Source of the DNA: a virus
Taxonomy: Duplodnaviria; Caudoviricetes
Reading direction: 5' to 3' (one strand)
DNA: 64,000 nt
IMG/VR virus record: IMGVR_UViG_3300028591_000010
Span: 1 to 64,000 of that record
Numbering within the stretch: the stretch's first letter is position 1; every line of letters begins with the position of its first letter. The notes under the pieces were generated by a model that ran no database searches, was not told the DNA's origin, and was given only the letters and a program-made list of their open reading frames with translations. The translations under genes and the position numbers were made by a program. Positions 1 through 64,000 of the stretch are shown piece by piece.

Positions 1-23
1 AAGAATAAAGAATTTAAACATAT

Positions 24-1547
24 ATGAATAATACTTTACTTAATAATCTCCAGCTGTATCGTGGACGTCGTTTCAGCGACCTGGTAGATGAGAACATGAT
101 TTCTAACGCTCTGCTGACCAAGCCTCATGAGGTATCTGGTCTGCTTTCACTGGTATTTGGTACTAAGGATGATGGTATTTCAACTACTATCGACCTGTTG
201 ACTGGTGGTCTGGGCAAGACTATGATTATTGAGAATCGTGAGTTTGAATGGAGTGTAATGGTTGACGCTGATCACGCTGTCAATATCCGCTGGGCTAAGT
301 GGAATGGTCAGGAGATCACATATTCTAACTATAACTCTATTACTCCTGGTTTGAACAATACTCCTATCTACCTGGCTCTCGAAGAGCGTTGGTTCGGTCC
401 TGGTGCAATTCTGTCGTTCGACGACTACAAGTTCCAGGTTCGTACAACTGGTCTTCCTTATCAGGATGGCAGCGCTTGGGTTTACGAGTGCTATGTTGTA
501 GATGGTTCACAGGCAGCTTATATTCCTGGTGAGTTCCTGATGCCTGGTCGTCAGGTAAGCCGTATCGGTTCTGCTTACGAGGAGTACAGTGATGAGGCTG
601 ATATCATCAACTATCAGACCCCATTCAAGATGCGCAATCATCTGCAGAATCTGCGTCTGACTTATGATATTACCGGTGATGCTTACAGCACAGTTCTGGC
701 TATCGCACTGAAGGATCCCGAGACTGGTAAGAGCTCTTATCTCTGGTCTGACTATCAGTACTGGAAGGCTCTACGTGAGTGGAAGAAGAGAGAGGAGACA
801 GCTCTCCTGTTCTCTAAGAGCAACCGTCTGAGCGATGGTACTTATATCAACAAGGGTACTAACGGTCGTCCTGTTCCTACGATGTCTGGTCTGTTCGAGC
901 AGATCTCTCCGGCTAACATCCGTTACTACACGACTCTTACAGCTGAGTTGTTCGAGGATTATCTGTTCGATCTCTGCTACAACATCCTGGGTACTAACGA
1001 GCGTAAGTTCGTTGCTCTGACCGGTGAGATGGGTATTCGTGAGTTCGACCGTATCCTGAAGGAGAAGGTTGCTAGCTTCAACCTGGTTGATAATATCTTT
1101 GTAACTGGTTCAGGTCAGAACCTGACTCTTGGTGGTCAGTTCACGACTTATAAGATGACTAACGGTATTGAGCTCTCTCTGAAGCGTTGTCCTATGTTCG
1201 ACAACATGGAGCTGTTCCGTCAGTTGCATCCTCTGACTGGTAAGCCACTGATGTCCTACACCTTCCTGTTTGTTAATATTAGCAACTTCGATGGTCAGGC
1301 TAACATCGTAAAGGTTTGTCGTAAGGGTCGTGAATTCGTTCAGTGGTACACTGGCGGTTCTGTAGCACCTAACGGTTATGCTAACAGCATCAACACTCTG
1401 CGTTCTAACAGCCGCGATGGTTACCAGGTTCACTTCCTTGGTGAAGTTGGTATCATGGTTCGTAACCCGCTGTCTTGCGGTATTCTGTACTGCGACGCTG
1501 AGGATACTGAAATTTCCAACAGTGGAATTCCTTCAGTTGGTGCGTAA
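24..1547 (+). CDS. Major capsid protein (crAss-like, HK97 fold)
   Basis: 507 aa with crAss MCP-like motifs (ENREFEW, GSAYEEYS, YWKALREWK, SNSRDGYQVHFLGEVG). No in-frame TAG, strongly biased codon usage, TAA stop, first gene of the structural module. Confidence 0.9.
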   Translation: MNNTLLNNLQLYRGRRFSDLVDENMISNALLTKPHEVSGLLSLVFGTKDDGISTTIDLLTGGLGKTMIIENREFEWSVMVDADHAVNIRWAKWNGQEITYSNYNSITPGLNNTPIYLALEERWFGPGAILSFDDYKFQVRTTGLPYQDGSAWVYECYVVDGSQAAYIPGEFLMPGRQVSRIGSAYEEYSDEADIINYQTPFKMRNHLQNLRLTYDITGDAYSTVLAIALKDPETGKSSYLWSDYQYWKALREWKKREETALLFSKSNRLSDGTYINKGTNGRPVPTMSGLFEQISPANIRYYTTLTAELFEDYLFDLCYNILGTNERKFVALTGEMGIREFDRILKEKVASFNLVDNIFVTGSGQNLTLGGQFTTYKMTNGIELSLKRCPMFDNMELFRQLHPLTGKPLMSYTFLFVNISNFDGQANIVKVCRKGREFVQWYTGGSVAPNGYANSINTLRSNSRDGYQVHFLGEVGIMVRNPLSCGILYCDAEDTEISNSGIPSVGA

Positions 1548-1564
1548 TATCTAATTAACACAAC

Positions 1565-1601
1565 ACGATCTCTTGGGGGCTTCGGCCCCCATACAGGTCG
1601 T
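1565..1601 (+). promoter_or_regulatory. Stable UUCG-tetraloop hairpin after the MCP gene (mRNA stabiliser or attenuator)
   Basis: GGGGGC-TTCG-GCCCCC (1575-1590), extendable by ACGATC/GGTCGT. No U-tract follows. Confidence 0.6.
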
Positions 1602-1623
1602 TATTACAACTCTAATGTAAATT

Positions 1624-2376
1624 ATGGTAGTTGAATTAAAAATTAAGAAGAAGAATCCCTGGATTGGGCTGATCAAGTATAAGAATTGTTTTGATTATAT
1701 TGCTCCTTATTTTACAAGATCCGGGTCGATATATACGGGTCTCACCCCAGAAGATGAGAAATATTTTGAGAAAGCTTTGGGTTATGAGGAAGGTCACCTC
1801 TCAAAGACGTCAGACTTTTGGCAGACATTCTGTGTAAAAGTAGGTACGCGTACGTTGCTGTTAGATGATTCTATTCCTCGTCAGGCTATGATTATTAAGT
1901 TCCTTAGCGGACATAAGCGTGTTGCTACGTCTCTCGATAAACTTGATGCAGGTAAAGACTATCTGTTGATCAATCGTGAGGCTGAAGCAGTAGAACAGAA
2001 CAAGCAGAATAAATTGCGTAGAGATGCTATCAAAGAGTTTGATAAACTGTCACTCGATCAGATGCGTCAGTGCTTACGCCTATTTGGTATGTCTTCAGAC
2101 CGTATGTCTAATGAACTCGTAGAATCTACATTGTTTAACTTGGTTGATAAGCAACCTAAGAAGTTCTTCGATAAGTGGGTTAATAATAAGTCTAAGGATA
2201 CTGAATACTTGCTTGAACAGGCCATTGCTAAAGGTGTAATTCGTAAAGACAAGACGCATTATTTTTATGGCACTGATATGTTTGCTGATTCGCTTGATGA
2301 TGCTATTGGATACTTAGACAGCAAAAAGAACCAAGATCTGAAGCTTGCAATCATAAACGAGACAAACAATAAGTGA
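1624..2376 (+). CDS. Conserved crAss-like protein immediately downstream of MCP (function unknown)
   Basis: 250 aa ORF without TAG, in the conserved position after MCP in the crAss capsid module. Confidence 0.75.
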   Translation: MVVELKIKKKNPWIGLIKYKNCFDYIAPYFTRSGSIYTGLTPEDEKYFEKALGYEEGHLSKTSDFWQTFCVKVGTRTLLLDDSIPRQAMIIKFLSGHKRVATSLDKLDAGKDYLLINREAEAVEQNKQNKLRRDAIKEFDKLSLDQMRQCLRLFGMSSDRMSNELVESTLFNLVDKQPKKFFDKWVNNKSKDTEYLLEQAIAKGVIRKDKTHYFYGTDMFADSLDDAIGYLDSKKNQDLKLAIINETNNK

Positions 2377-2398
2377 TATAATCACAAAAGAATGAGAT

Positions 2399-3994
2399 AT
2401 GACGCATAACAAGATATATACTAAATTCATGATAGAATATGACAAGGCAAATGTTACTTCGTCATATCCATCCCTTACAAAGTATGAAGCTGCGACTCTA
2501 TTAGACAGAGCGTATCTTGCTTTGATTTCAAGGAAACTTACGGGTAATAATACCCGTAGAGTTCCTTTCGAATATGATACAAAAGCAATAGAAGACTTAA
2601 GACCTCTTGTAACAACTAAGAGATTTGAGCAGAAAGGTGGTTCTAATATTGTACTAAATGAATATAAGTTTGGAATGCCAGATGATCTCTTATATTATAT
2701 AGAAGGTGTTGCTAATTATGGTTCAGAAAGAGAAATAGTACTTCCTGTAAATCATCAAATAGCTAGAAAGTTTAAGTATACTAATAGCAATATTCCTTGG
2801 GTTAATCACCCAGTATCTTATATAGAAGGATCTGAAATATATGTACTTATAGATCCGTTCTTACATACAAGTAGTCCAGATTTAGATGGTACTTATATAA
2901 AGAAACCCGCTAGTTTTGTAGTGTCTCTTAAGAAGATAGAAGACGATAACAATGACGGAAATAATTCTGGAGACAATGATGATGGTGGCGATAATAATGG
3001 AGGAGGAAATGATTCCGGAGGAGATAATGGCGGAGGTAATTCTGGAGGAGATGATCAAACTACAGTAACACCTCCAGTTATAACACCAGATGATCTTACT
3101 TTTGCAAACGTTCTTTACGTTAATATAACAGCTGCTAAAGCAGATCATATTGTCTATAGAGTGAATAATGGCACATGGAATGAATACACATGGCCTATAA
3201 CTATAACAGAAACGTCTACTATAGAAGCATACGTTGTATTAAATAATATTGTTAGTAGTACAGTAACTAAAACTTATACTAAACAATAGCAGCAACAGAC
3301 AACAATTAATCCTCCTAGACTTGTTGGTGCTACTTCGTTTATTGACAATACATACGTAGCCATGTATGCAGATGAAGGGTGCCAAATCAAATATACGAAA
3401 GATGGTAGCGATCCATTAACGTCTACTACGGTAAGTATTTATTCTGGATAGATAAAGATAGAAGAAACTACAATTATAAAAGCTGTTGCATGGAAAGACG
3501 ATCATCACAGTAAAGTAGTAACGTAGACTTATGTTAAACAATAGTTAGATTCGTCAACCACACCTACTGTTATTATAGAACAATGTAAATATGTACCGGC
3601 TAGTTCAAATCAGGCAGAAAGTATCTATATTAAACATCAAGTGAATTTAAATAATGTCGGTGTTCGTGTATATTTACACACAATGATTACTGACGACAAT
3701 AAGACGCAGCATGGAGAAATTATTCCTATAATATACGATGTGGAAAGCAAAGTATATGAATAGCTTTTGCCTTATACAAACGGCGATAAAAAAGTAAGAA
3801 TAAGATTGCGTGGTAGAGATAATGACATATTATATAGTGAAGTTTTTGCAGATATAACTGACTTGCCATCTAACGCTCCAGAAGCACCAGATCCAGAAGA
3901 AGGATTCGATTACGATCCATCTGCACCAACATTAGAAGAACTTACATCAAACGTATTAGGCGAAGCTACGCTTGGCGAAATAATATTACAATAA
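2399..3994 (+). CDS. Tail ring protein N-terminal part fused to a Gly/Asp/Asn linker and two Fn3-associated/CHB_HEX_C-like domains (TAG=Gln, 531 aa)
   Basis: Fragments 2399-3289 and 3767-3994 share a frame and are separated only by 5 TAGs. Ring motifs FEYDTKAIEDL and YIKKP, then IKYTKDGSDP...IEETTIIKAVAW. TAA stop. Confidence 0.75.
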
Positions 3995-3997
3995 TAT

Positions 3998-5587
3998 ATG
4001 GATAAATTAAACTTAACATTTAAAGAGGGAGATGTTTTACATGCATCTTCATTGACATCTATTGTACAGACTCTCAATAGTGTAATAGACAATATAAATA
4101 CTGCGATCGAGAGTATTTCGTCTGGAAGCGCAGCAGCTACGTATGATTATACTTTCGAATTTCACGAAGGTTACTCATTAGGATACAATCTTGTTATTCG
4201 TAAATATCAGGATGGTAAAACATACAGAGAAAAAGTAGTTCCTTATTATGAAAGCGTGACCACGATGGAAAATGCTTTAAAGGAGAAAGGTCTTTGTACA
4301 TCGTTTAATCTTACTGTGAAAGTTTAGGAAAGAACTACAGATGGCGAACTTAGTTTTACAACAGAAGGAAATCCTAAATTTATACGATGCGGAACTGATA
4401 TTCAAAATAATGGTTGGAAATTATCAGAAGGAACCAAAGCCGGACAAGGTAAAGGTTCTTTCGAATATATTCAAAGTCATTACTACTACAGTGCAGGAAG
4501 AAAACCTTGGAACGAAGGTCTTGATATAGGTGATGACAATGTCGTATATAATCCTCCTACAGAGTTTGAAGTTTATTCTAATCCAAAAATATACAAGATA
4601 ACACCGTGGTCAAGTAGTATGGACGGAATAGAATTTAATGTGGCAGAAAATGTCGAAGGTCTTAGTCTTATTAAAGCGATAAGAAATACTCTTACGACTA
4701 CTGTAGATAATGTACCTTCTACTTATACTCATGATACATATGTACACGTAGCAAAGGACAACATTCTTATGGAAGGATTTACTGTATTTAGAAGTTCTGA
4801 ATTAGATTGGAGTAAATTTATAGATCTGACTACTGTTGGAAACGAAACCAGCCCGAACATTATATTTGGAAATAACTTCAATTTTGATAGATGGTGTCGT
4901 GCGTATTTAAGTGATCCAGAATACTATCCAGATCCTTCTAATGGTTCTTACAGAGGGTATGTAAAATATTTTAAGAGAAATCCAAAAACTGGACAAGGAG
5001 GTTATGATTTTCTATAGGACGGAAATATAACTTTGAATAAAGGTGATATTTTTGTATACTTTAAAAAGAAAGAAAATATAGTTGGCACAAGAATTAATCC
5101 TACAGCAAAAATCTATATAGATGACATATGGATTAATCCTAGAGATTATGGTTGGGAAGGAGATACTTGGTAGTTTAACGCGTGTATAGATTTTATTATG
5201 TACGCCGCTCACAACGATCTCATAGGTTCTGATGGAAACATATATAGAGATGTCGATACAATTCCTGAAGGAATTACTACTATTCCAGCATGGATAAGTT
5301 ATTATGATTAGGCACATCACCTTCCAGATGGCACTATAATAGGTGTACTGGATGATGTAAACAACATTTATACTCCAAGTAAACCAAATGTTCATTATCA
5401 CGGAAAGTGGGTTAGACAATACAATTCGCTTGTAGGCACTGTACCTACTCATATATATACTATTCCTTGGGAAGAATATGTGTATAAATCAAATGGGGAA
5501 AGATGCAATAGATTTGGTGGAGATAACTACGAAATAATGGCCTTTTGTGCTAATCAAAAGATCGAGTTTAAAAATATCCAATTCTGA
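3998..5587 (+). CDS. Putative fiber/receptor-binding-like protein (TAG=Gln, 529 aa)
   Basis: Fragments 3998-4327 and 4619-5017 are in one frame, continuous through 4 TAGs to TGA 5585-5587. N-terminal FKEGDVLHA...LNSV motif resembles phage fiber N-termini. Function is inferred. Confidence 0.65.
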
Positions 5588-5736
5588 TGAAGTACGAATT
5601 TAGTGATACAGTTCAGTTCGAACTGTCAGATACAATGGCAGAAGAGCTTATAAGTCTTGCTGTAGCTATGGCACTTGAGAACGTAGAGTCTACTAGATTA
5701 CAAACTAAACTATCAACATTACCACTTGAAGGATGA
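5587..5736 (+). CDS. Separately encoded C-terminal helix of the tail ring protein (49 aa)
   Basis: MKYEFSDTVQFELSDTMAEELISLAVAMALENVESTRLQTKLSTLPLEG matches the C-termini of the two downstream ring paralogs. TGATG overlap upstream, ATGA overlap downstream. Confidence 0.7.
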   Translation: MKYEFSDTVQFELSDTMAEELISLAVAMALENVESTRLQTKLSTLPLEG

Positions 5737-6467
5737 GTTTAAAAGAAACAAGACAGCTTGGTATAGAGTTTGAACGTAGGGTACAGACTATGATACCTGA
5801 GACAGAGATTGTTTCAAAGCTGGACACTGACACTATATATTCTTTCTTAAACTAGTATCAAGATAAGTTTATAAGAGATATATATAAAGTGATGGACAAT
5901 ATCCCTACTCCTTCAAAGCCATCTAGCTATGTTGAGTCTATTATACAAGATTTAATTGTACATAAGAAATATACAGTTAATTCTAAGAATAATTAGTTCT
6001 CTATAGAAGTTCCTGATGATTTTGGATTGTATATCGATAGCACCACAAGCGTTAAAGATTCTAGTAGATATAAGACTTACGATAAAGGTTCTTTTAACGG
6101 CAATGGAGAGCTTCCTGTTACGCTTGTGTCTAAAACTAAGGCTCAAGAGTTTATTACTAGGCCATAGGATAATATGCGTATAATGAGGCAACCTATTGCA
6201 TTCTTGGATGGAAACGATAAGACTGGATATATTAAAGTGTATCATGATAGATATACAAAACCAGAATATTTCAATCTGTCTTATTATAGATATCCTAGAT
6301 ATATGAAACTTGCTTCAGGATCAGAATGCGAACTCGATCCGAAAGTATTCGATGATCTTGTAACTGGAGCAGTAGATTTATATGTATAGTATGTTGCTGG
6401 TGCTGAGGCTAGAAAGAGGTAGATGTCAGAACAGTAGAAACGAAACAATAAGGAGGATGAACAATGA
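5733..6467 (+). CDS. Tail ring protein paralog (TAG=Gln, 244 aa)
   Basis: MSLKETRQLGIEFERR...YYRYP...CELDPKVFDDLVTGAVDLY. Contains fragment 6174-6389. ATGA overlaps at both ends. Confidence 0.75.
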
Positions 6468-7207
6468 TAGGTGTAGATATACTAACAGCGTTTGAACTTG
6501 AGATAAACAAGATCAACGATACATTAGAGAAGCCTCTAACAGACGATTCGTTATACTGGCTTAATCAGGCTATAGTAAAGTTTACCAAAGATAGGTTTAA
6601 TGGTAACGCTCCTAAACGTACATCTTATGAATAGAACGAGAAACGTACAAGAGATTTGATAAACCTGTTTAGAAGTATAGATATTGAACCAGAAGAAGTT
6701 TTACAGCAAGCTGGTACTAAAGGAGGTCATCCTTACTATGTACACGTTAAAGGTCCTGAATAGCACGAAAGTTATGATGCATACGTATATAATTATCCAA
6801 CAGATATGATGTTCGTTCTCAGTGAAGATGTAGTTATATCTGACTTTGATGATAATTATAAGATGGATACGTGCGTGTTTGAATGTACGGCCGATAGTTT
6901 CATGTATAGAGTAAACAATAAGCTTACAGACTTTCACTATCGCTTTCATAGAGCAAGACCTCTCCGTATAAGAACCAAAGAGGGATTTAAGCTTCTTACT
7001 GATAAGAAATATAAGATTAATAGATATACTCTGGGCTACCTTAAGGTCCCAGAAGAAATAACAAGTGAAGATCCTTTTAAAGAATATAAGGACTTCGAAG
7101 ATTACACTTGGTTGGAAATAATTAAGATAGCCGCATAGATGTATGTAGAGAATCAATCAGATCCTCGCTACAAGACTATCACACAAGAAGTTCTAACACA
7201 AGAATAA
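6464..7207 (+). CDS. Tail ring protein paralog (TAG=Gln, 247 aa)
   Basis: WLNQA...SYE(TAG)NEKRTRDL...YLKVP...EIIKIAA(TAG)MYVEN. Contains fragment 6806-7138. TAA stop. Confidence 0.8.
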
Positions 7208-7283
7208 TTTTTAACGTGGAAACCCCAGCTAGTTAGGTCTAGCCTTAGAAATAGAGGGGGAGTAGAAAAAAATTAAATAAATT

Positions 7284-8492
7284 ATGGTAAATTATGTAAA
7301 TACTGTGCTCGTTAGCAATCTGTCTTCGGGCGCCGTTTTGAGTGCAGCTCCTGCAGCAGCTGCTAGTTTGAATGCTGCTTCTGATGATGCTGGTAAGTTC
7401 ATTCTGATGAACTGTGATCCTAATGTAGATTCTAACAAGATCTACGAGGTTACCGCTGCTAATGCTGCTAACATCAACACAATTAAGGTTGGTATCGTTA
7501 CAAAGAAGAACTCTGTTCTCCGTAATGCAGACGGTACTGTTACTTATACTCCAATCGTAAAGTGGTCAAACGAAATCAAAGCTGCTGATATTAAGAGTTA
7601 CAACGCTCTGACATACGCTGCTGACACTGAGGATTGTGTATACATCGACCTCAACAGTCTGACGGATATTGTCGGTAACGGCAATAGCGCTAAGGCCGGC
7701 ATTCGTGTTATCGTTCGTCTGACTTACAAGGATATGCCCCACCGTTATCGTAAGTGGACTGAGAGCTATGAGTATGTAACTGCACAGGGTGATACTAAGG
7801 CTAAGATTGCTGAAGGTATTGCTAAGATAATCAATAAGGAGTGGAAGCGCGCTCGCGTTCAGGCTACTCAGGGTACTGTTACTCTGTCTTCTGGCGCATT
7901 TGCAAGCTTCTCTTCTAGCAATTCCGGTACAGGTGTTAAGATTGAGGCCCTGCCTTACGACGATGACGACAGCGTAGATTCACTGAACTGGGCTAACAAG
8001 GTTCGCTTCAATGCAAACATCTACTGGACCGATCCTTCTGCTGAAGGTTGGGAGTCTCTGAATAAGCACTTCCCGAAGGGCGCTGCTGTTGTTAAGGTTC
8101 CTGGTCAGACATATCCTGCTTCTGCTAAGCTCGTCCGTGATCGTGAGAGCTGGGCTATGGGTTATCTGGGAATCCTGAACCGTGGTGAAGGTACGTGGCC
8201 TATCATCAAGCCTGCTATGGAGACCGATCTGACTGCGCACTACGATGCTCTTACTCTCGAGTTTGAGAATATGTATCGTGCAGCTGATGATATCCAGCGC
8301 AAGACGAAGCAGACCCTTGAAGTCTATGGTAAGACTGGTCAGCTGAGTGATATCAAGGCTATCCTTGACGCATTTGTAGAGGGTGTTGTTTCAAGCTCTG
8401 ATGCTGCACAGAATGCTGCTCTTGATCCTACTGTAGAAGGATCTCTTGCTGCTCGTGTTGCTGCTCTCGAGACTACTGTTAGCAACCTTTAA
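7284..8492 (+). CDS. Auxiliary capsid protein (crAss001 gp36-like)
   Basis: 402 aa, no TAG, MCP-like codon bias, motifs VRDRE..AMGYLG and YDALTLEFEN.Y, position after the ring genes. Confidence 0.7.
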   Translation: MVNYVNTVLVSNLSSGAVLSAAPAAAASLNAASDDAGKFILMNCDPNVDSNKIYEVTAANAANINTIKVGIVTKKNSVLRNADGTVTYTPIVKWSNEIKAADIKSYNALTYAADTEDCVYIDLNSLTDIVGNGNSAKAGIRVIVRLTYKDMPHRYRKWTESYEYVTAQGDTKAKIAEGIAKIINKEWKRARVQATQGTVTLSSGAFASFSSSNSGTGVKIEALPYDDDDSVDSLNWANKVRFNANIYWTDPSAEGWESLNKHFPKGAAVVKVPGQTYPASAKLVRDRESWAMGYLGILNRGEGTWPIIKPAMETDLTAHYDALTLEFENMYRAADDIQRKTKQTLEVYGKTGQLSDIKAILDAFVEGVVSSSDAAQNAALDPTVEGSLAARVAALETTVSNL

Positions 8493-8509
8493 TTAAACTA
8501 ACGATATAA

Positions 8510-8548
8510 GACTAGGGGTGGGGCAACTGCCCTATTCCTAGTTTTTTA
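8510..8548 (+). terminator. Rho-independent terminator
   Basis: GACTAGGGGTGGG...CCTATTCCTAGTT stem followed by a T run. Confidence 0.8.
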
Positions 8549-8562
8549 TTAAACAACAGCTT

Positions 8563-9462
8563 ATGGAAACAAAGAAGATTAGAATTGGAAACGACATAAG
8601 GCTTGCTGTGGACCTTCGTTAGTATATCAAAGATAAAAATCCGTATCTCTACGAAAGACGTGTGTATTTTCCAGGAGACGATGAGTTTGAACGCTTAGAT
8701 GACAATGAGTTTGTAAATAAGAAGACAGAACTCTATTATCCACCTCTTTATGATGAGGATGACGATAATCAGAATGGATCTGGAATTGCTTTTGATCCTA
8801 GTAATATACATCTTTGTATAAGAGAGGTAAAGGCAATATTAATAAACACGTCGCTTTAGAAGAAGCTAATCGATAAGCATAGAAAAGAAAGTAGATTTAT
8901 CGGTAGATTTCCTGTAGAACCTGGAATTCCTCCATTCTATCCTACACATCACGATCTGTGTTGTAGCGGATTTCCTGGATGGAGAGCTTATCCTGGCTTC
9001 GGAGTATATCCTCACTGGGGAGCTTTGTATCATCGCATGCCTAAAGTAAACCCTGTAGAATACTAGGCAGAAGCAATGGCTACTAACAAACAAAACGTTG
9101 TAGAAGTTATGTTTCCAGCTGAAGCTCAGCTTTATACAGGAAAATATAAGCTCGTTATTGTTGCAAAAGTATTTGCTCCAGGTTTTAACAATAAAAACCT
9201 CAAAACAATAACGCTCGATGTTCCAGATGTATTTGAACTCGTTGGTTCTACAGAAGAAGGTATAGATACTGGATTTAAGATTAACGTTTCAGAAGTAATA
9301 GATATTCTTCCAGATGAGAATTACTTCTATACTCCACCTGAGTTAGATGTATTCGTAAATGAAGGAGAGATTGGAGACAACCACTTATTGCTCAATAGAA
9401 CAGACAGTAATGTCGTAGATGTAGACTTGAGTAGCGTAGTTGGTTGGCATGATGAAAATTGA
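8563..9462 (+). CDS. Hypothetical virion-module protein (TAG=Gln, 299 aa)
   Basis: Starts METKKIRIGNDIRL and joins fragments 8662-8859 and 9076-9462 in frame through TAGs. TGA stop. Confidence 0.7.
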
Positions 9463-55621: not shown

Positions 55622-55979
55622 AGAATCCCGCAAGATTCTACCCTCAAACTCCCGCAAGAGTTATAGACGAGATAAGTTTTATGAAAATAGCATTATCGAC
55701 AATGACCTAGATATATTCATTGCTCAGTTCATCAAGATGTTATTATACTACCGCAATAATATAACAACTAAATCCCGCAAGATTTATTAGTCTCGACTAA
55801 TATGAGCTCCGACTACACCCATTTCAAGGTCAATAAATGCTCTACCAGTTGCGTCTGGAAAACGATACGTATGAGTACGTGTACGAGTATTAACGTTAAC
55901 GACAATGTTTGTGTCATTGGCAGGTGTCTCAGTGACTACAACCCTTGAGCCCGACTTCCTCTGGTCTCCCGCAAGAGAC
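55622..55979. repeat. Five hairpins with invariant CCGCAA loop
   Basis: Stems AGAATC/GATTCT, AACTC/GAGTT, TTATACTA/TAATATAA, TAAATC/GATTTA and GTCTC/GAGAC each enclose CCGCAA. Confidence 0.75.
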
Positions 55980-56377
55980 GATTGTCCGTCACCATTACAC
56001 ACATGTCTATAACAATCCATCAGACGATTAACTACATCGTTATACTTTTCCGCACGTTGTGCTTCCTTAGCTATTTCAACACTCAAACCTTCTTCCAATG
56101 CTTTCGCATTTAATCCTGAAGAAAGGTCAACCAGGGCATCCCATACAGCGAGAGCCCAACTTTCAAATGTAAGTTCGCGCTTACATCCGATCAGCTGATT
56201 CCAGAACCAATGAGTTGTTTCACCAAGAATCACGGTTCCTTCTACATCGTCAATACGATACGTCTTGTATGATCTACCCTCTTTGCCAGCAGCTTTTACC
56301 TTATTGGCAATAGTTTCATTGTTCATCAGAATCTCCATATATTTTACGGAGTCTGGAACGAGGGCTGTTTTCGGCAT
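55787..56377 (-). CDS. Hypothetical protein
   Basis: 196 aa ORF, tightly packed with the upstream gene. Confidence 0.7.
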   Translation of the reverse strand: MPKTALVPDSVKYMEILMNNETIANKVKAAGKEGRSYKTYRIDDVEGTVILGETTHWFWNQLIGCKRELTFESWALAVWDALVDLSSGLNAKALEEGLSVEIAKEAQRAEKYNDVVNRLMDCYRHVCNGDGQSSLAGDQRKSGSRVVVTETPANDTNIVVNVNTRTRTHTYRFPDATGRAFIDLEMGVVGAHISRD

Positions 56378-56379
56378 AA

Positions 56380-57033
56380 CTATTCAGTTACGTGAACATT
56401 TACAATTGCATCTGCGTTTACGTCAGACTTAATATCGAGATTATCGATCTTAGACTCTGACCACTGACGCTTGTACTCAGCAGCCTTACGGAGATTTTCC
56501 GTAATAGCAGTCTCTACAGACTGACGCTGACTCTGAAGAGTCTTAATCAGCGCATCGATCTCTGCCAGAGTACCCTTATTGGCCTCATTCAGGACAGATA
56601 CAGTTTCGTCAACTGCGACAAAGAAGTTCTTACCTGTGCCACGCAGAGCATCATTGATAGCATCGCGCATAGACTTCTCTACAACCAGAGGGTTAGTGCC
56701 ATTCAAGGGGCACTTGAAGTCACTTTCGCCATTATCCTTCAAGTTAACAGCAATACATACACGCTGGGAGTCGCCAAGACCTTCCGTCACATAGTTGACA
56801 CCTTTGATGTCAATCAGACGAATGGTGTAACGCTTTGGCGACTGGTTCACCATCAAAGTATTACTTGCAGTAGCAAGATTCTTAGCCTCTTCAAACTTGT
56901 CCTTACCACCAGGCCATGTGGGCTGACATTCTACTTTACCAAAAGTCTTACCGAGAAGACCACCGATGAAACTCGCCGACTGACGAGTGCTTGCAATCAC
57001 CTCATTGAGGTTAATTTCTACGTTTTTATCCAT
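56380..57033 (-). CDS. Hypothetical protein (coiled-coil C-terminus)
   Basis: 217 aa ORF with high-expression-type codon usage. Confidence 0.7.
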   Translation of the reverse strand: MDKNVEINLNEVIASTRQSASFIGGLLGKTFGKVECQPTWPGGKDKFEEAKNLATASNTLMVNQSPKRYTIRLIDIKGVNYVTEGLGDSQRVCIAVNLKDNGESDFKCPLNGTNPLVVEKSMRDAINDALRGTGKNFFVAVDETVSVLNEANKGTLAEIDALIKTLQSQRQSVETAITENLRKAAEYKRQWSESKIDNLDIKSDVNADAIVNVHVTE

Positions 57034-59175
57034 TTTTACTTATCCTTTTTGATACCGTGGTTGATCCACCAACGATAAGTTAGAATATTTCCTACTTCAG
57101 GGTGTAGGTTCACCGCTATAGAGAGATTTACGTCCGGCTCGGCGGCTCTATGTCTGGACGGTGTTCGTCATACTTATTTTTACTTCGGTAGCTGTGCTAA
57201 TGGGAAGCTTCGTTTGCTTACTAGATTGTTACACTTCTATATTCCTTAAAATGAAGCTCAACTCATGTAACGGGAGCGAAATGGTATCGCATGTATACCC
57301 ATAGACTAATAATATTCGAAGCTTTAAATGCCGAATGTGTAAATTCAATTTCTAAGTTTTCTTGAACAAGATATTTATTGTTTGTAAAATATTCACTAAA
57401 TACTTTCCCTTACGGTACTAAATCCAGAGTTTATACTTGTCCGTTGGCAAAATTTTGGCTAGGCCAACTAATGCTCATAGGACCCCACAAAAATTCGCGT
57501 AATTTCTTCGTTAGTATATTTCCCGTTGTCTATCGAATCATTACTGCGACGATTGTTGCTTAACCACAGATTTTCTCTGATGTTGCATGGTTTAAGGCCC
57601 ACACTACTATTTACCTATATTCCCTTTTAATCATGACGTGCGTGTGTCATTGCACGGGACGTGCTTCATTATCGAACGATCTAGGCTCCAGAACCAAATA
57701 ACCTTACGGCTTGTTTTCTTCTATTGGCATATTGCTTGCCTCATTGTTTATAGTGCACGAATACTGGAGGAATTCCACCTCATACGTCTAGATTTATCAC
57801 CCACCTAAAGATTCATTTTTATCGGTTTCCATTACTACTACTTACACACTAGGTATAAGGTTCATGCAGGTCGCTTTACCCCTCCTAGACAGGGAGGTGA
57901 TTACTAATTTCACGATAGGCTGCCTTGCATCTGGATTTCTCCTTTGTCACGTATATTGCTTCATGGTCCGAACGCACCATCTAGATTTGCTGTCTAGACT
58001 TCTGGTCTACCATCTTGCTACTTGCTTCTCAGGAACGGTTGGCACTCGAACTTCCCGACTTCAACTGCTTCTCATACAACGAGAGCTAAGGTCTTCTACA
58101 CCTTTTTCTATTATTACGTCTATCGGGGGACATCAATTTTTGTTAAACATGTTAATTAACTCTACGGCACGTTTTTCTACTCACATTTAGTTTCATCAGA
58201 ATCTACTACATCGATATGTTGTTCACGTATAGTATACAGTTTACTACTCTGCCGGGACTATATGATATAGTAACATAAGGAATCATCTGATTATATTCAT
58301 GCTTTTGAGGAAGCGGACTTAAGTCTGTACTGGTGTGTACAGGGTCGGATCAACTCCCTAGATAAGTAAATTTGGCTGTCACGTTGCCATCGTACCACAG
58401 GACATTTCCTTTTACTGTGGGTCCTTCTATAGAATCATACTCGCTTACCAGTACTATCTACCTTTGAAATAGCGTTTCTACGCGCGCTTCATCCGCGTAT
58501 TGTAGGCACCTGTCCTACAAGTTAAGTAGTGCATCTACCCGCTGTCCTTTTACTTTTATATACCGCATAAATGACGAAAGCCTGGCGGTCAACATTTTCC
58601 TCAGTACCCCATCCCCGGTGACCCATTGAAACCTTAGCTTCAAAGGTGGTCATTCTGTCTCGACACAGAAAGGATTTCTTCAAGGACCATATTTACGATA
58701 TGGCGCAGACAGTCAAACCTTCTGCTAGGCACATATGTTATTTCTTCATCCCTTTATACACGCTGTGGAGGCGTGAAACACTAGATTACAGCTAATTGAT
58801 ACATCATTACAAGTCATGGTCAAATGTAATGTTGCGACTCCTGTCTCGTTATACTACCCTTATGTATCCTCAGATAGCATGTCGAATACGGCATCATTCT
58901 GCGCTTCTTGCGACTTACTCGTTTTTATGGTAATCCCTCACCAAACGGTTCTCAGGGGCCAAAGGACTTGATACAAACGCTCTGTCCTCTTACTATGAAC
59001 TTTTCTGTTATGGAGTATGCATAACATCATAGCATTTCATCCTACCTTTTGGATATCTCACCTTTTGAGAAGGCTAACATATTCTCGGATCAAGTTATAC
59101 TCTTCGCACCTGGGCTAATGAGACCCATCTGAAATGTGCTAAGCAGGTGCCACTCTGGCTGGAGCCACAGTAATC
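57034..59175. other. ~2.1-kb gene-free, hairpin-rich region (candidate long ncRNA or origin)
   Basis: No ORF of 60 aa or more on the co-transcribed - strand, and many short inverted repeats. Confidence 0.5.
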
Positions 59176-59676
59176 CTACTGTGACTCCCCTGTGGAGTGA
59201 TTAACGTTTTTAGAGTATACAACTTCACCGTCGACAGTGAGCTGTATAGCAGATTCTTTAGAAGAACCTACATCACACTCTCCAGTTTTCTCCTCACGAA
59301 CTGGAGCTCCTTTGTTGCTAACAGTATCCACAGATGTCGGCTTTGGAGTAAGCATCATCCATGAATAGTCTGTCACTCTCGCGGGCGAGCTAACCCTTGA
59401 GAATTTTGTTTTAATAACTAGGATCTGCGGACGGTCCACATACGCAGTATCGTGTATGTACAGAGTATCTCTGCTGACCGTTGAATCCATTTGTACCGGC
59501 TGCTTCAGGGATGCCTGAAGGTCGTATGGCAACTTAGATATCTCCAGTGGAGATAACGTAGCTGCACTGAGAGTCTGATGCTTAGCAAAAGAACTCCCTG
59601 TACTATTTGACATTGCCAGGAATCCGCCAGCTAAGGCGAATGCAATGCAACAAATAATTGTTGTTACGTATTTCAT
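59176..59676 (-). CDS. Membrane-anchored or secreted hypothetical protein
   Basis: 166 aa with N-terminal hydrophobic segment. Ends in TAG. Confidence 0.65.
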   Translation of the reverse strand: MKYVTTIICCIAFALAGGFLAMSNSTGSSFAKHQTLSAATLSPLEISKLPYDLQASLKQPVQMDSTVSRDTLYIHDTAYVDRPQILVIKTKFSRVSSPARVTDYSWMMLTPKPTSVDTVSNKGAPVREEKTGECDVGSSKESAIQLTVDGEVVYSKNVNHSTGESQ

Positions 59677-59716: not shown

Positions 59717-61105
59717 TTACTTCTGCTCTTCAGCAGGAGTCTCTGCCTGGGCAATTTCGGTGATGTTACTTTCTGAGTAAGCAATCGACTGAGAAAGAGG
59801 ATCACGGAACAGGTTAACGATGATGCCGGCACGCTGCTGTACGTTGTGCAACAGTGAATCCATATCAACCTTAGTCAGATCAGTACCCTTATAATAGGTG
59901 TTGATGATCTGGTCAACAATCAGGTGAGCACGCTTGTAGTCAGCGTCGGTGTCATCCTTCTTGTTGAAGTTGTCGATGAGGTTGTCAACGTCCTCGATAG
60001 AGGGGTTGTTCATACCAATAACAATGCCGTTCATCTCATTGATAGTGTTGTTACATTTCTCAATGTAATCCTTGTGGGTTTTGATGTCAGTCTTTGCAAT
60101 GTTCACCTCAGTTGCATCTTTGTTTTCCTTAACAATTTCCTCTTTCTTCTTGATGATGCGCTCATTCTCCTTAATTCCCTTCTCTGCCTTAGAGATTTCC
60201 TCTTTACAGGACCAAGTGATCATGATACGGACCAAGTCGGCAATGAAGTCGTTGGTGAGAGCACCTTTGGTGTCGATCTTATCCGCATTGCGGCGATACA
60301 TACAGAAAGGACCAATGATTGTACCAACGTTGACGAAGTTCTTGCGGAACAAGCCAGCGTTACCAACCAGACCAACGGGACACGGACCTACGACAGCAGC
60401 CATTTCAGAGAGAAGGTCAGAATAGCTCTTATTCTTCACCTCTTCAAGAGCAGCCTTCTTGTCTTCAGCCTTGTTTGCCTGAATAGTCAGATAACCACGA
60501 TAGAAATCGGTAGCACGACGCATGCGGGCAATAATGCCCTCATTACCTCTACTGATAAGCAGAGTCAACGATGCAGCGAGTTGCTCGGGACTAGTAACTT
60601 CTGCAGGGTTGGTCACACCTTCCAACTTCTCTTCGGCAGCAATCTTCTTCTTCATGTCATCACTTACCTTTACGGCAGTGGACGGAATCTGAACATCACC
60701 CTTCTCATTAGGAGCGGGCAAAGCCTTCACATCAATTGCTACGCCAGTGAACTCGCTGATGGCGTTTACAGCTTCTACCTGGTTCTTCAGCATCATTTGT
60801 GCAAATGGGCTCTTATTTTCATGAACCTCAATAGCCAATACTGTTGCAAAGCCAGTCAATGTGAATACATTGATACTGTGAATCGTGTCTTCAGACAGAT
60901 TATAATATGCAGCAGCGTTAGGATTGTCGTGGATCATACCTTTCAAGCCATTCAACGCCGTTACAGTCGCATCGGGGCTTAATCCACTCTTTATCCCATT
61001 TACCACTGTCTTAACAGCTGGATTTTCTACTTTTGGAGTCTGCTGTGCTGCAGCCTCTTCTGCAGCCTGCTGTGCAGGACTCTTCTTGTTATTCTTGTTT
61101 GCCAT
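59717..61105 (-). CDS. Hypothetical protein, likely highly expressed
   Basis: 462 aa, biased codon usage, coiled-coil segment. Confidence 0.75.
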   Translation of the reverse strand: MANKNNKKSPAQQAAEEAAAQQTPKVENPAVKTVVNGIKSGLSPDATVTALNGLKGMIHDNPNAAAYYNLSEDTIHSINVFTLTGFATVLAIEVHENKSPFAQMMLKNQVEAVNAISEFTGVAIDVKALPAPNEKGDVQIPSTAVKVSDDMKKKIAAEEKLEGVTNPAEVTSPEQLAASLTLLISRGNEGIIARMRRATDFYRGYLTIQANKAEDKKAALEEVKNKSYSDLLSEMAAVVGPCPVGLVGNAGLFRKNFVNVGTIIGPFCMYRRNADKIDTKGALTNDFIADLVRIMITWSCKEEISKAEKGIKENERIIKKKEEIVKENKDATEVNIAKTDIKTHKDYIEKCNNTINEMNGIVIGMNNPSIEDVDNLIDNFNKKDDTDADYKRAHLIVDQIINTYYKGTDLTKVDMDSLLHNVQQRAGIIVNLFRDPLSQSIAYSESNITEIAQAETPAEEQK

Positions 61106-61596: not shown

Positions 61597-62154
61597 TTAA
61601 ACGTTAATTTTGGTTTTTAATTTGCGTCTAGTTCTCGACAACGTTGACTTTATAGTTCCTGTTGGGATTTTTAACGCTTTACTAATCTTTTTAACTGGTA
61701 AATTATCGACATAAAACAACTCAAAGATCTTACGAGTGACCTCTGGTAGTTTTTCGAATTCAGCGACAACTTGTTTATACGTCAAATGATTGACTAGATC
61801 ATCCTCCGCTGATACTTGAACATTTTTAAGTGACAGTCTATCACCTTCATCTTCAAGTACAAGTCGCTTATTACGCGTCTCACGTAAATAATCTACAGCT
61901 GTATGATTAGCTATAATTCTCAGCCAACCTCCAAAGGAGTTGTAAGCTGTGAATGTCGAGAGTTTATCATACACTTTAAGAAATACAATATTAGCGATAT
62001 CTTTCGCTTCATCCATATCTCTAAGATATTGGAATAACACACTTTCAACAAACGGTTTGTATCTTCTATAGAGTGTATTAAAAGCAAGCTCATCGCCTGC
62101 TTGCGCCTTTTTGATTAGACCAATTTCAACATCGGTGATTCTAGGATTCTTCAT
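61597..62154 (-). CDS. ECF-type sigma-70 factor
   Basis: AQAGDELAFNTLY, DIANIVFLKVY, FGGWLRIIANHTAVDYLR (region 2) and ISKALKIPTGTIKSTLSRTR (region 4). ATG at 62154 preferred over TTG at 62166. Confidence 0.9.
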   Translation of the reverse strand: MKNPRITDVEIGLIKKAQAGDELAFNTLYRRYKPFVESVLFQYLRDMDEAKDIANIVFLKVYDKLSTFTAYNSFGGWLRIIANHTAVDYLRETRNKRLVLEDEGDRLSLKNVQVSAEDDLVNHLTYKQVVAEFEKLPEVTRKIFELFYVDNLPVKKISKALKIPTGTIKSTLSRTRRKLKTKINV

Positions 62155-62377
62155 AATCAAAAACAATTAGCCGGTTATTAAGGTGTCACTCCTGTAACAG
62201 ACGGTGCTGCATATAGTGTAAGAAGTATGAGCAGGGTTCAATTGGACTTATCTTTAGGATTAGAGTACCTTCACTAGTTGCCAACCATCGCTCTGTACTC
62301 CCAGATCGACTGCTACGAATCTTTCATACTTCTTAATTGTGGGCAGTTGCTATCAAAAGCTACCTCAAGGGACTGCC

Positions 62378-62806: not shown

Positions 62807-63304
62807 TTAATACTTACCTTCTATACAACATATCAAGAATTCTGCTAAGTTATCAACATACTGATACTTTGCTTCTTTCTCCTCCTGCGTACAATTGGGA
62901 GAAGGTAATAGCCAAGAAAGATAATCTCGAATGATTTCAATCTGTATATCAAAATCATCTTTACCTTTCTGTTTAGAGATACTGTATGCATGTTCAATGC
63001 ACTGAAATTCTTTCATGAACCATTTAACCCATTTAGAGATACGTTCCCAATATTCTTTTTCTTCATTGGTTAAATCGTCCCAATTAATAGTTTTATCAAA
63101 CTCAAATTGATATTTACCATGTTCAGCAATGCCCAATGCTATACGAGTAGCATTATTACGCTGATCTTTATCACGATATATACCAATAAAATTTGAATAA
63201 ACATGATCTATCCACTTTTCTTTAGCTTTACGCCATTTAAGTGCATAGTTTACCATCTTGGGACAACGGTCCCGTAACATTTCTTTGTATCCTAATTTCT
63301 TCAT
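62807..63304 (-). CDS. Hypothetical protein
   Basis: 165 aa ORF starting just after the tRNA-Arg 3' end. Confidence 0.7.
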   Translation of the reverse strand: MKKLGYKEMLRDRCPKMVNYALKWRKAKEKWIDHVYSNFIGIYRDKDQRNNATRIALGIAEHGKYQFEFDKTINWDDLTNEEKEYWERISKWVKWFMKEFQCIEHAYSISKQKGKDDFDIQIEIIRDYLSWLLPSPNCTQEEKEAKYQYVDNLAEFLICCIEGKY

Positions 63305-63308
63305 ATTG

Positions 63309-63382
63309 TGATTCCTAATGGATTCGAACCATTGACCGACAGATTAGAAATCTGTTGCTCTATCCAGCTGAGCTAAGGAACC
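63309..63382 (-). tRNA. tRNA-Arg(TCT)
   Basis: Full cloverleaf GGTTCCT...AGCTCAGCTGGATAGAGC, ACAGA-TT(TCT)AA-TCTGT, AATGG-TTCGAAT-CCATT, AGGAATC-A. CCA not encoded. Confidence 0.9.
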
Positions 63383-63454
63383 GTTACGTCAGCGGCTACT
63401 ATTATTCACCGCTGACTACTATTACAAATCGTTCATTAGACATTGCCTCACGGC

Positions 63455-63503
63455 AGGAGTGAGGTAGGGATTCGAACCCCATACTCCAACATAGTCCTCA
63501 CTC
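63455..63503 (-). ncRNA. Mini tRNA-like element (acceptor stem + T-arm, no anticodon arm)
   Basis: GAGTGAGG/CCTCACTC stem, 14-nt linker containing TGTTGG, TGGGG-TTCGAAT-CCCTA. Confidence 0.6.
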
Positions 63504-63509
63504 TGTCTG

Positions 63510-63722
63510 GGCACTTAGGTAGCCCGTAACACCGACTTTACGCTGCCTCCTTGAGGCCCGTATAGTCTGCAATGTTAATATTGCCAGTTAATTTTATATC
63601 AGAGCGCTTCACGACTTACCGTCTACCGCTGTCAAATCCAAATAGGCCCAGATACTCATGTTAGACTGGTGGACCTAGAGGGATTCGAACCCTCGTCCAA
63701 ACGGCTTATTCTCAGTCACGCT
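63510..63722 (-). ncRNA. ssrA: Circularly permuted (two-piece) tmRNA
   Basis: 3' acceptor piece (GGACGAGGGTTCGAATCCCTCTAGGTCCACCA, ends 63667) precedes the 5' piece (GGGCCTATTTGGATTTGACAGCGG, starts 63649). 7-bp stem with G3.U70. TAACT then tag frame 63585-63538, GNINIADYTGLKEAA*. Outer ends approximate. Confidence 0.85.
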
Positions 63723-64000
63723 AAGATTCTTTTGATGTGATGTTGTCAAATCATGCTACATCTCTTGTGAACTCTATGATGATCAGTCACAGAATTCGAT
63801 TTAAGGCCATTTTCAGCCGTTCTAAGGCGTTTTCTAACCTCTAATGGGTAGCTAATCCATAAGCGGTTATTAAACGCTTCAAAACGGCTTTTTGGGACCC
63901 CATAAAAAGCACATTGCCCTACTACTGACTCTAAGGTTCTGAATAGAATATGCTTGCATTCTTGATATACAATGCAGTGTCAATATGTTGATACAATCTC

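Follow-up and report, generated by a model that had tools for sequence, protein, structure and literature searches.

Between two protein-coding genes of a crAss-like phage lies a stretch free of protein genes that probably encodes a very large structured non-coding RNA, about 2.1 kb long and made from the minus strand (we put the probability of this reading at roughly 0.6). It is very likely indeed, judging from the comparison of sequences, that selection has acted on this locus as structured RNA. The chances that the whole stretch is one RNA molecule seem about even, and a role for the RNA as a scaffold acting in trans is put forward here tentatively. The RNA appears to be new as a family, and in kind it would belong with the large ornate RNAs of phages.

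The window, that is, the whole stretch of DNA that was analysed, consists of bases 1 to 64,000 of a complete 106,373-bp IMG/VR record of a crAss-like phage, the ends of which carry direct terminal repeats of 127 nt. Its family-A DNA polymerase shares 76% identity with that of the crAss-like phage cr272_1 (Crassvirales, Suoliviridae, Oafivirinae), and near-identical sequence in public runs comes from sheep and bovine gut samples; the phage can be placed by such comparisons as an Oafivirinae-like member of the Suoliviridae from the ruminant gut. In human and animal guts, Suoliviridae rank among the most abundant phages, and we know of no cultured member. Up to about 43 kb the genes of the window are encoded on the plus strand; beyond that point they switch to the minus strand, and the GC skew turns (at about 43-44 kb) in the same place. 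The genes and RNAs to which we refer below are the following (window positions, unless stated otherwise):

57034-59175, minus strand: the conserved non-coding RNA locus as a whole (RNA 1-2142)
59176-59676, minus strand: upstream flanking ORF of 166 aa, syntenic in relatives
56380-57033, minus strand: downstream flanking ORF of 217 aa, with homologues in metagenomes only
59717-61105, minus strand: 462-aa protein, two genes upstream of the RNA and always present there
61597-62166, minus strand: sigma-70/ECF-type sigma factor, three genes upstream of the RNA
63282-63760, minus strand: permuted tmRNA (Rfam RF04321), with the tag peptide VAADVTVP according to ARAGORN, about 4 kb upstream of the 2.1-kb stretch
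63308-63382: tRNA-Arg(TCT), nested in the permuted tmRNA
76681-76755 of the genome, outside the window: tRNA with anticodon CTA

In the late plus-strand block (window 1-43000), TAG is apparently a sense codon. When it is read as such, coverage of this block by stop-free frames of at least 100 codons rises from 0.54 to 0.82 and 39 frames merge into 20; the minus-strand block is left unchanged by the same comparison and uses the standard code.

The stretch is conserved well beyond this one phage. Islands of it are found by blastn at 75-90% identity in eight crAss-like genomes, and a gene-free gap of 2.0-2.2 kb separates the same flanking genes in all seven reference Oafivirinae inspected. The exact 17-mer UAUUCGUGCACUAUAAA, used as a retrieval pattern against IMG/VR, returned 70 viral loci. 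Together with the reference genomes, these loci provided 56 full-length copies, with about 1.9-2.3 kb between anchors, from which we retained the 32 sequences below 96% identity that make up the alignment. Per-block conservation extends over the entire length of the stretch, with peaks of 0.8-0.9, and none of the full-length copies is missing a whole block. The Loutivirinae cr52_1 and cr4_1 have a syntenic gap of about 2.1 kb that is also recognized by nhmmer (E = 6e-21 and 1e-17, respectively), and in which four to five signature islands follow one another in the same order as in Oafivirinae. At least two subfamilies, Oafivirinae and Loutivirinae, thus maintain the locus at one genome position. 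A syntenic gene-free gap of 2.1 kb is likewise found in the Boorivirinae member cr10_1 (L080, 2582-4657), with no detectable similarity to the RNA of the Oafivirinae and Loutivirinae; it could be either the same RNA, diverged past sequence recognition, or a replacement.

Between this phage and cr272_1, the neighbouring 462-aa protein has an identity of only 32%, compared with 75-90% for the islands, so that the RNA is far better kept than the ORFans adjacent to it. No loci related through the 166-aa flanking ORF emerged from a search for close relatives, and the locus goes unmentioned in the crAss-like genomics papers and the 2023 Crassvirales review that were searched. The invariant islands can be used as family-specific markers, a single 17-mer having fetched 70 viral contigs. 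The invariant 19-mer of the RNA is also carried by two contigs of about 101 kb (L082 and L086) binned as Segatella copri MAGs; in assemblies of prokaryote genomes, it was matched only by contigs that look like phage. These two contigs are probably whole phage genomes that were binned with their host through co-abundance, and their binning hints at Segatella as the host genus of the human-gut relatives. For a Suoliviridae phage in general, Segatella or Prevotella is the probable host.

An earlier note on this DNA had described the stretch as devoid of minus-strand ORFs of 60 aa or more, as lying in an otherwise tightly packed genome and as less AT-rich than is typical of intergenic DNA there. 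All of this is borne out: the longest minus-strand ORF within 57034-59175 has 53 aa, the flanking minus-strand genes form a tight array, and the GC content of the stretch (0.36-0.44) equals or exceeds that of the neighbouring coding DNA. TAA, TAG and TGA each occur 13 to 22 times in every minus-strand frame, and no single stop reassignment can therefore open a frame. Among the 32 relatives, no ORF on either strand of the stretch is conserved in place or in frame. The plus strand contains an ORF of 108 aa (57864-58190), which is not conserved, has no codon periodicity and is broken in relatives by indels whose lengths are not divisible by three. When the window is compared with its five nearest relatives, the substitutions lack a three-base periodicity (p = 0.25-0.9), and only 11 of the 63 indels separating it from the nearest relative are multiples of three. 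Small sense ORFs of at least 30 aa pile up at RNA 581-687 only, with starts and stops that disagree between genomes; they do so because an invariant island without stops lies there, the variable 'codons' being the arms of a helix that covaries. On the antisense strand, ORFs of 60-168 aa are scattered and differ from genome to genome, and the relative L063 has none.

It could be argued that the stretch represents a protein gene that has decayed or been recoded, or one that is split by introns, as the late plus-strand block of this phage uses TAG as sense and as the delta-group crAss-like phages are intron-rich (Yutin 2021). However, the minus-strand block is on the standard code, the other two stops remain frequent in all frames whichever one is read through, and looking for small or recoded ORFs brought to light no frame conserved in the 32 relatives. 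As for introns, no group I or II model (RF00028, RF00029, RF02001 and their relatives) matches at E <= 10, and the flanking ORFs are separate and complete in all relatives. A protein gene is thereby refuted as far as these tools reach, and the probability that we would still give it is negligible.

The earlier note had also called the stretch hairpin-dense. Its folding energy is no better than chance, the three thirds of the RNA having MFE z-scores of -0.70, -0.04 and -0.43 against dinucleotide shuffles, and the case for structure therefore rests on comparative evidence rather than on the single sequence. Two of the five inverted repeats offered as examples, CCATAT/ATATGG (RNA 472-477:485-490, where the RNA coordinate is 59176 minus the window position) and TTCTGT/ACAGAA (RNA 507-510:519-522), do belong to helices supported by covariation; the other three fall outside the consensus structure.

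The comparative evidence includes the following: 1) a strict scan of the alignment, in which a helix had to show at least two double-sided changes, found 16 helices, against 0-2 in column-permuted controls; 2) RNAalifold, applied to the 32 sequences, predicted 268 pairs, 156 of them with double-sided (compensatory) changes, at an energy of -292 for the sense and -252 for the antisense strand, the consensus pairs taking in only about a quarter of the alignment columns; 3) in an alignment-free test, the invariant loops CYCAUUA, AGCGUUGUAUCA and GAGAACCGUCUGG were each closed by 15-17 different stems, which were longer than when flanks were swapped between genomes. The cells of the consensus structure are canonical in 90% of cases, and in 78% after the partners have been shuffled between sequences. 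Its covariation scores 0.388, compared with 0.176 after shuffling (none of 200 shuffles reaches 0.388) and with 0.08-0.11 after sliding the partners by 1-3 columns, values that are to be read in the light of cells that are not phylogenetically independent and of RNAalifold itself making use of covariation. A fresh MAFFT alignment of the 5' domain let RNAalifold recover only 2 helices, because the stems were misaligned by 1-2 columns. The recurrent architecture is a variable stem bearing a long invariant loop.

The 32 non-redundant homologues share conserved non-coding sequence longer than 500 nt, with a multi-helix structure that covariation supports. The proposal of one or more novel non-coding RNAs, with which the earlier note had ended, finds support here: more than 30 diverged phages conserve the place and the length of the stretch, both strands are non-coding, the many covarying helices stand well above the controls and Rfam offers no match.

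Which strand folds can be read from the wobble pairs. In helices picked by Watson-Crick pairs alone, G:U cells outnumber A:C cells by 129 to 76, which identifies the folded strand as the minus strand, on which the flanking genes are also encoded, and indicates pairing of RNA rather than a DNA structure. This asymmetry bears directly on the idea of an element acting at the DNA level, be it a packaging site or a replication origin (possibly RNA-primed), an origin being the other reading proposed in the earlier note. The stretch does lie just upstream of the block encoding the family-A DNA polymerase, primase and helicase, but the GC skew turns elsewhere, at 43-44 kb, the direct terminal repeats at the genome ends are far away, and the excess of G:U over A:C indicates selection on RNA pairing, on one strand. 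Neither a switch of GC skew nor iterons nor an AT-rich unwinding element was found in the stretch (GC 0.36-0.44); tandem repeats are absent as well, and no repeat family rises above chance. The origin is therefore not upheld, and a DNA-level element of any sort seems very improbable.

The individual elements of the predicted RNA structure, from 5' to 3' along the RNA except that the two arms of the long-range helix are kept together, are these:

59111-59127 (RNA 49-65), minus strand: 5' hairpin with the 7-nt loop CYCAUUA; loop in 32 of 32 sequences, on 15 distinct stems
59039-59090, minus strand: 5' domain, with helix RNA 86-89:134-137 around hairpin RNA 103-115 and the invariant strand CAAAAGGUAGGAUGAAAUG
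58963-58988 (RNA 188-213), minus strand: hairpin with the conserved 14-16-nt loop AGAGCGUU(U)GUAUCAA; 30 of 32 sequences, 17 stems
58935-58958 (RNA 218-241), minus strand: hairpin with the conserved loop UGAGAACCGUYUGGNGA; 28 of 32 sequences, 15 stems
58853-58878, minus strand: hairpin RNA 298-304:317-323, with double-sided changes in 7 of 7 pairs
58654-58775, minus strand: four hairpins, RNA 401-417, 451-471, 472-490 and 507-522, with 4-5 covarying pairs each
58542-58590, minus strand: most conserved island, GACCGCCAGGC...UAUAAAAGUAAAA, block conservation 0.89
58126-58154 (RNA 1022-1050), minus strand: invariant single-stranded island UAACAUGUUUAACAAAAAUUGAUGUCCCC, block conservation 0.88
58042-58046 (RNA 1130-1134), minus strand: 5' arm AGUGC of the long-range helix, pairing with RNA 1420-1424
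57752-57756 (RNA 1420-1424), minus strand: 3' arm GCACU of the long-range helix, within the invariant island UAUUCGUGCACUAUAAA
57979-57999, minus strand: hairpin RNA 1177-1183:1191-1197, capped by a conserved GCAA-type loop and covarying in 7 of 7 pairs
57228-57271, minus strand: hairpin RNA 1905-1910:1943-1948; 6 of 6 pairs covary
57038-57080, minus strand: 3'-terminal hairpin RNA 2096-2105:2129-2138, of 9 bp with 6 double-sided changes

Double-sided changes affect four of the five pairs of the CYCAUUA hairpin. In the 5' domain, the helix RNA 86-89:134-137 maintains AU/GC, UA/CG and CG/UA pairs in all 32 sequences, and the CCUU/AAGG hairpin has three covarying pairs. Stems are longer than in the controls with flanks swapped between genomes both for the AGAGCGUU(U)GUAUCAA hairpin (a mean of 6.1 bp versus 4.7) and for the UGAGAACCGUYUGGNGA hairpin (5.0 bp versus 3.5), the latter having a motif that is also present in Loutivirinae and five pairs that all covary. 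The most conserved island includes a helix of 12 bp, six of which covary (RNA 599-611:623-634), and its apparent conservation as peptide is due to this base pairing, starts and stops being inconsistent. No local stem closing the single-stranded island UAACAUGUUUAACAAAAAUUGAUGUCCCC was found. Non-canonical cells are rare in the hairpin RNA 1177-1183:1191-1197 (13 of 224) and in the 3'-terminal hairpin (10 of 285), for which the alignment also contains compensatory variants.

The long-range helix (RNA 1130-1134:1420-1424) spans 294 nt and closes a central domain of about 300 nt. It is paired in 34 of 34 sequences, and permuted controls yielded 0 candidates. A G:C pair has become C:G in the two Loutivirinae (cr52_1 and cr4_1) and A:U in cr131_1 (L004), and with these two independent compensatory changes the helix is solid, the one long-range helix of which this can be said. 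The pairing of islands RNA 93-101 and 1022-1030 proposed by RNAalifold shows no covariation and, as read from the alignment, is broken in 2-3 sequences, and the long-range pairings 393-397:2102-2106, 135-139:2101-2105 and 394-398:1412-1416 are rich in G:U, vary on one side and conflict with one another. With a single solid long-range helix and the others of this quality, one global fold is a possibility rather than an established fact.

Some further motifs deserve mention in their own right. The hairpin CACCUCCCUGUCUAGGAGGGG (window 57879-57899, minus strand; RNA 1277-1297) occurs, as read from the alignment, only in the subgroup of relatives to which the window belongs; its 5' arm seems to resemble the anti-Shine-Dalgarno sequence CCUCC at the 3' end of 16S rRNA, here paired to GGAGG. 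Reading of the alignment also revealed two T-loop-like motifs, GUUCGAUAA at RNA ~1499-1507 (window 57669-57677) and, in most relatives, G-UUCGAUU-C at consensus RNA ~511-520. Both look like the T-arms of tRNAs, modules that make tertiary contacts in other large RNAs.

Instead of one RNA, the locus could consist of several smaller, independent RNAs or elements (sRNAs, processing sites, leaders) lying side by side. Most of the supported helices are indeed local hairpins, the single solid long-range helix spans no more than 294 nt, the folding energy is unremarkable, and in the Cellulophaga phage phi14:2 two separate transcribed intergenic regions were reported (bioRxiv 10.1101/2020.03.07.982082). 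Set against this are the total length of 1.9-2.3 kb and the order of the islands, both constant across two subfamilies, as well as the absence of any relative without a whole block and of internal terminator-like sites on the minus strand. A collection of separate RNAs is in our view unlikely. The scan for terminator-like sites on the minus strand, whose counts are at chance level, found none inside the stretch or at its ends, and no promoter for the stretch was identified with a scanning tool that does not cover promoters of the Bacteroidota type.

At its 3' end the stretch adjoins the next gene, whose start region is covered by the terminal hairpin. The 3' arm of the terminal hairpin sits 5-14 nt upstream of the ATG of the 217-aa ORF (57033-57031), and the pairing of bases in this position suggests an effect in cis on that gene. 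Taken further, the same observation leads to the view that the entire stretch is a very long structured 5' leader, acting only in cis on the translation, stability or processing of downstream genes, with the replication module and the ORFs of 217 and 196 aa as its putative targets. The terminal hairpin, with six covarying pairs, occludes the region 5-14 nt upstream of the ATG, there is no terminator between the RNA and the downstream gene, and a contig from an RNA library bridges positions 55766-57257. The bridging contig may nevertheless represent DNA carry-over, and a length of 2.1 kb with more than 10 invariant islands, much better conserved than the flanking 462-aa protein, far exceeds the needs of any known leader. 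That the stretch is a leader and nothing else therefore seems improbable.

The proteins encoded nearby give no functional clue in Pfam, PHROG and structure searches. Neither the 166-aa nor the 217-aa flanking ORF has a Pfam or PHROG match. The 462-aa protein has more than 130 metagenomic homologues (132), none of them named; its AlphaFold model is all-alpha (pLDDT 74), with a best Foldseek match in the PDB at E = 0.1, and a search of the ESM Atlas produced no match. The sigma factor is syntenic in every reference genome whose fetched stretch reached that far upstream, and could direct transcription of this block of genes.

Metatranscriptome contigs covering the stretch are available from four ruminant-gut studies; being contigs, they carry neither strand nor ends, and their breaks are not transcript ends. 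In three of the four RNA libraries, the contig depth summed over 57005-59339 amounts to 2-10 times the depth of the flanks, a ratio inflated by the matching islands of relatives. In all four libraries, summed depth within the region is highest at the tmRNA; this does not amount to a ranking of expression, as relatives with matching conserved islands add to the contig depth. For the run holding the exact phage, the depth of perfect-match contigs is about equal inside and outside the stretch (75 and 52-63, respectively). The elevated depth fits, weakly, an abundant and stable RNA. As an anecdotal observation, a calf 'RNA virome' paper lists Suoliviridae among its top families.

In Rfam 15, cmscan found no match to the stretch, either at the gathering threshold over the whole window or at E <= 10 over 56800-59400. 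By the covariance models, this rules out GOLLD, ROOL, OLE, HEARO, raiA, introns and every other curated family. GOLLD (RF01998) and ROOL (RF03087) are reported from cryo-EM to form RNA-only multimeric assemblies (bioRxiv 10.1101/2024.12.08.627333). The 2.1-kb RNA resembles them in being a phage-borne, protein-free, large multi-hairpin RNA of unknown function, with conserved loops on variable covarying stems. GOLLD and ROOL are roughly 0.6-0.8 kb long, as opposed to about 2.1 kb here. They also differ in having no sequence or structure match to the 2.1-kb RNA and in belonging to Lactobacillales or rumen prophages rather than to crAss-like phages of Bacteroidota.

A nearer parallel in terms of the phages involved is found in the intergenic regions of g004-g006 of the Cellulophaga phage phi14:2, reported by Drobysheva et al. 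(bioRxiv 10.1101/2020.03.07.982082) to be long non-coding RNAs that early in infection are already transcribed above the level of most genes, and that persist. This is likewise a long gene-free region (about 1.7 kb) of a Crassvirales genome and of unknown function, but the phage belongs to the family Steigviridae, the region lies near the left end of the genome and was reported as two, and no structure or covariation was described for it. An nhmmer profile built from our 32-sequence alignment reached a best E of 0.87 on positions 1-9000 of phi14:2, where no signature motif or island was detected. The tmRNA of the phage itself is another stable structured RNA from the same block, very abundant in the same RNA libraries; it differs in its known family, its known function and its length of about 0.2-0.4 kb, and nothing resembling a tRNA or encoding a tag was detected in the 2.1-kb RNA.

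If the stretch is the gene of one large RNA, this RNA would be made in the direction of the surrounding early/middle block, which includes the sigma factor, the tmRNA and the replication genes, and would be stable and abundant. It might then serve as a scaffold or a decoy during infection, its invariant loops binding phage or host proteins or RNAs, or one another in the manner of GOLLD and ROOL, and its 3' end could damp translation of the downstream 217-aa gene in cis. A more far-reaching version, in which the whole 2.1 kb is one molecule of defined three-dimensional architecture, possibly a multimer or the core of an RNP, with a role in host takeover (for example, through the capture of ribosomes, RNases or RNA polymerase), must be considered doubtful; such a role would fit the position of the RNA by a phage sigma factor and a tmRNA, in a phage that recodes TAG.

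Should it prove to be one molecule of this kind, no larger structured RNA would be known from bacteria or their viruses, the ribosomal RNAs excepted. Its length of about 2.1 kb would widen the range of sizes seen in structured non-coding RNAs other than those of the ribosome, and it would be a natural target for cryo-EM and for benchmarks of RNA-structure prediction. The genomes of Suoliviridae would seem to devote 2% of their length to an RNA better conserved than the proteins adjoining it, which implies that infection by these phages includes an essential and unexplored RNA-based step.
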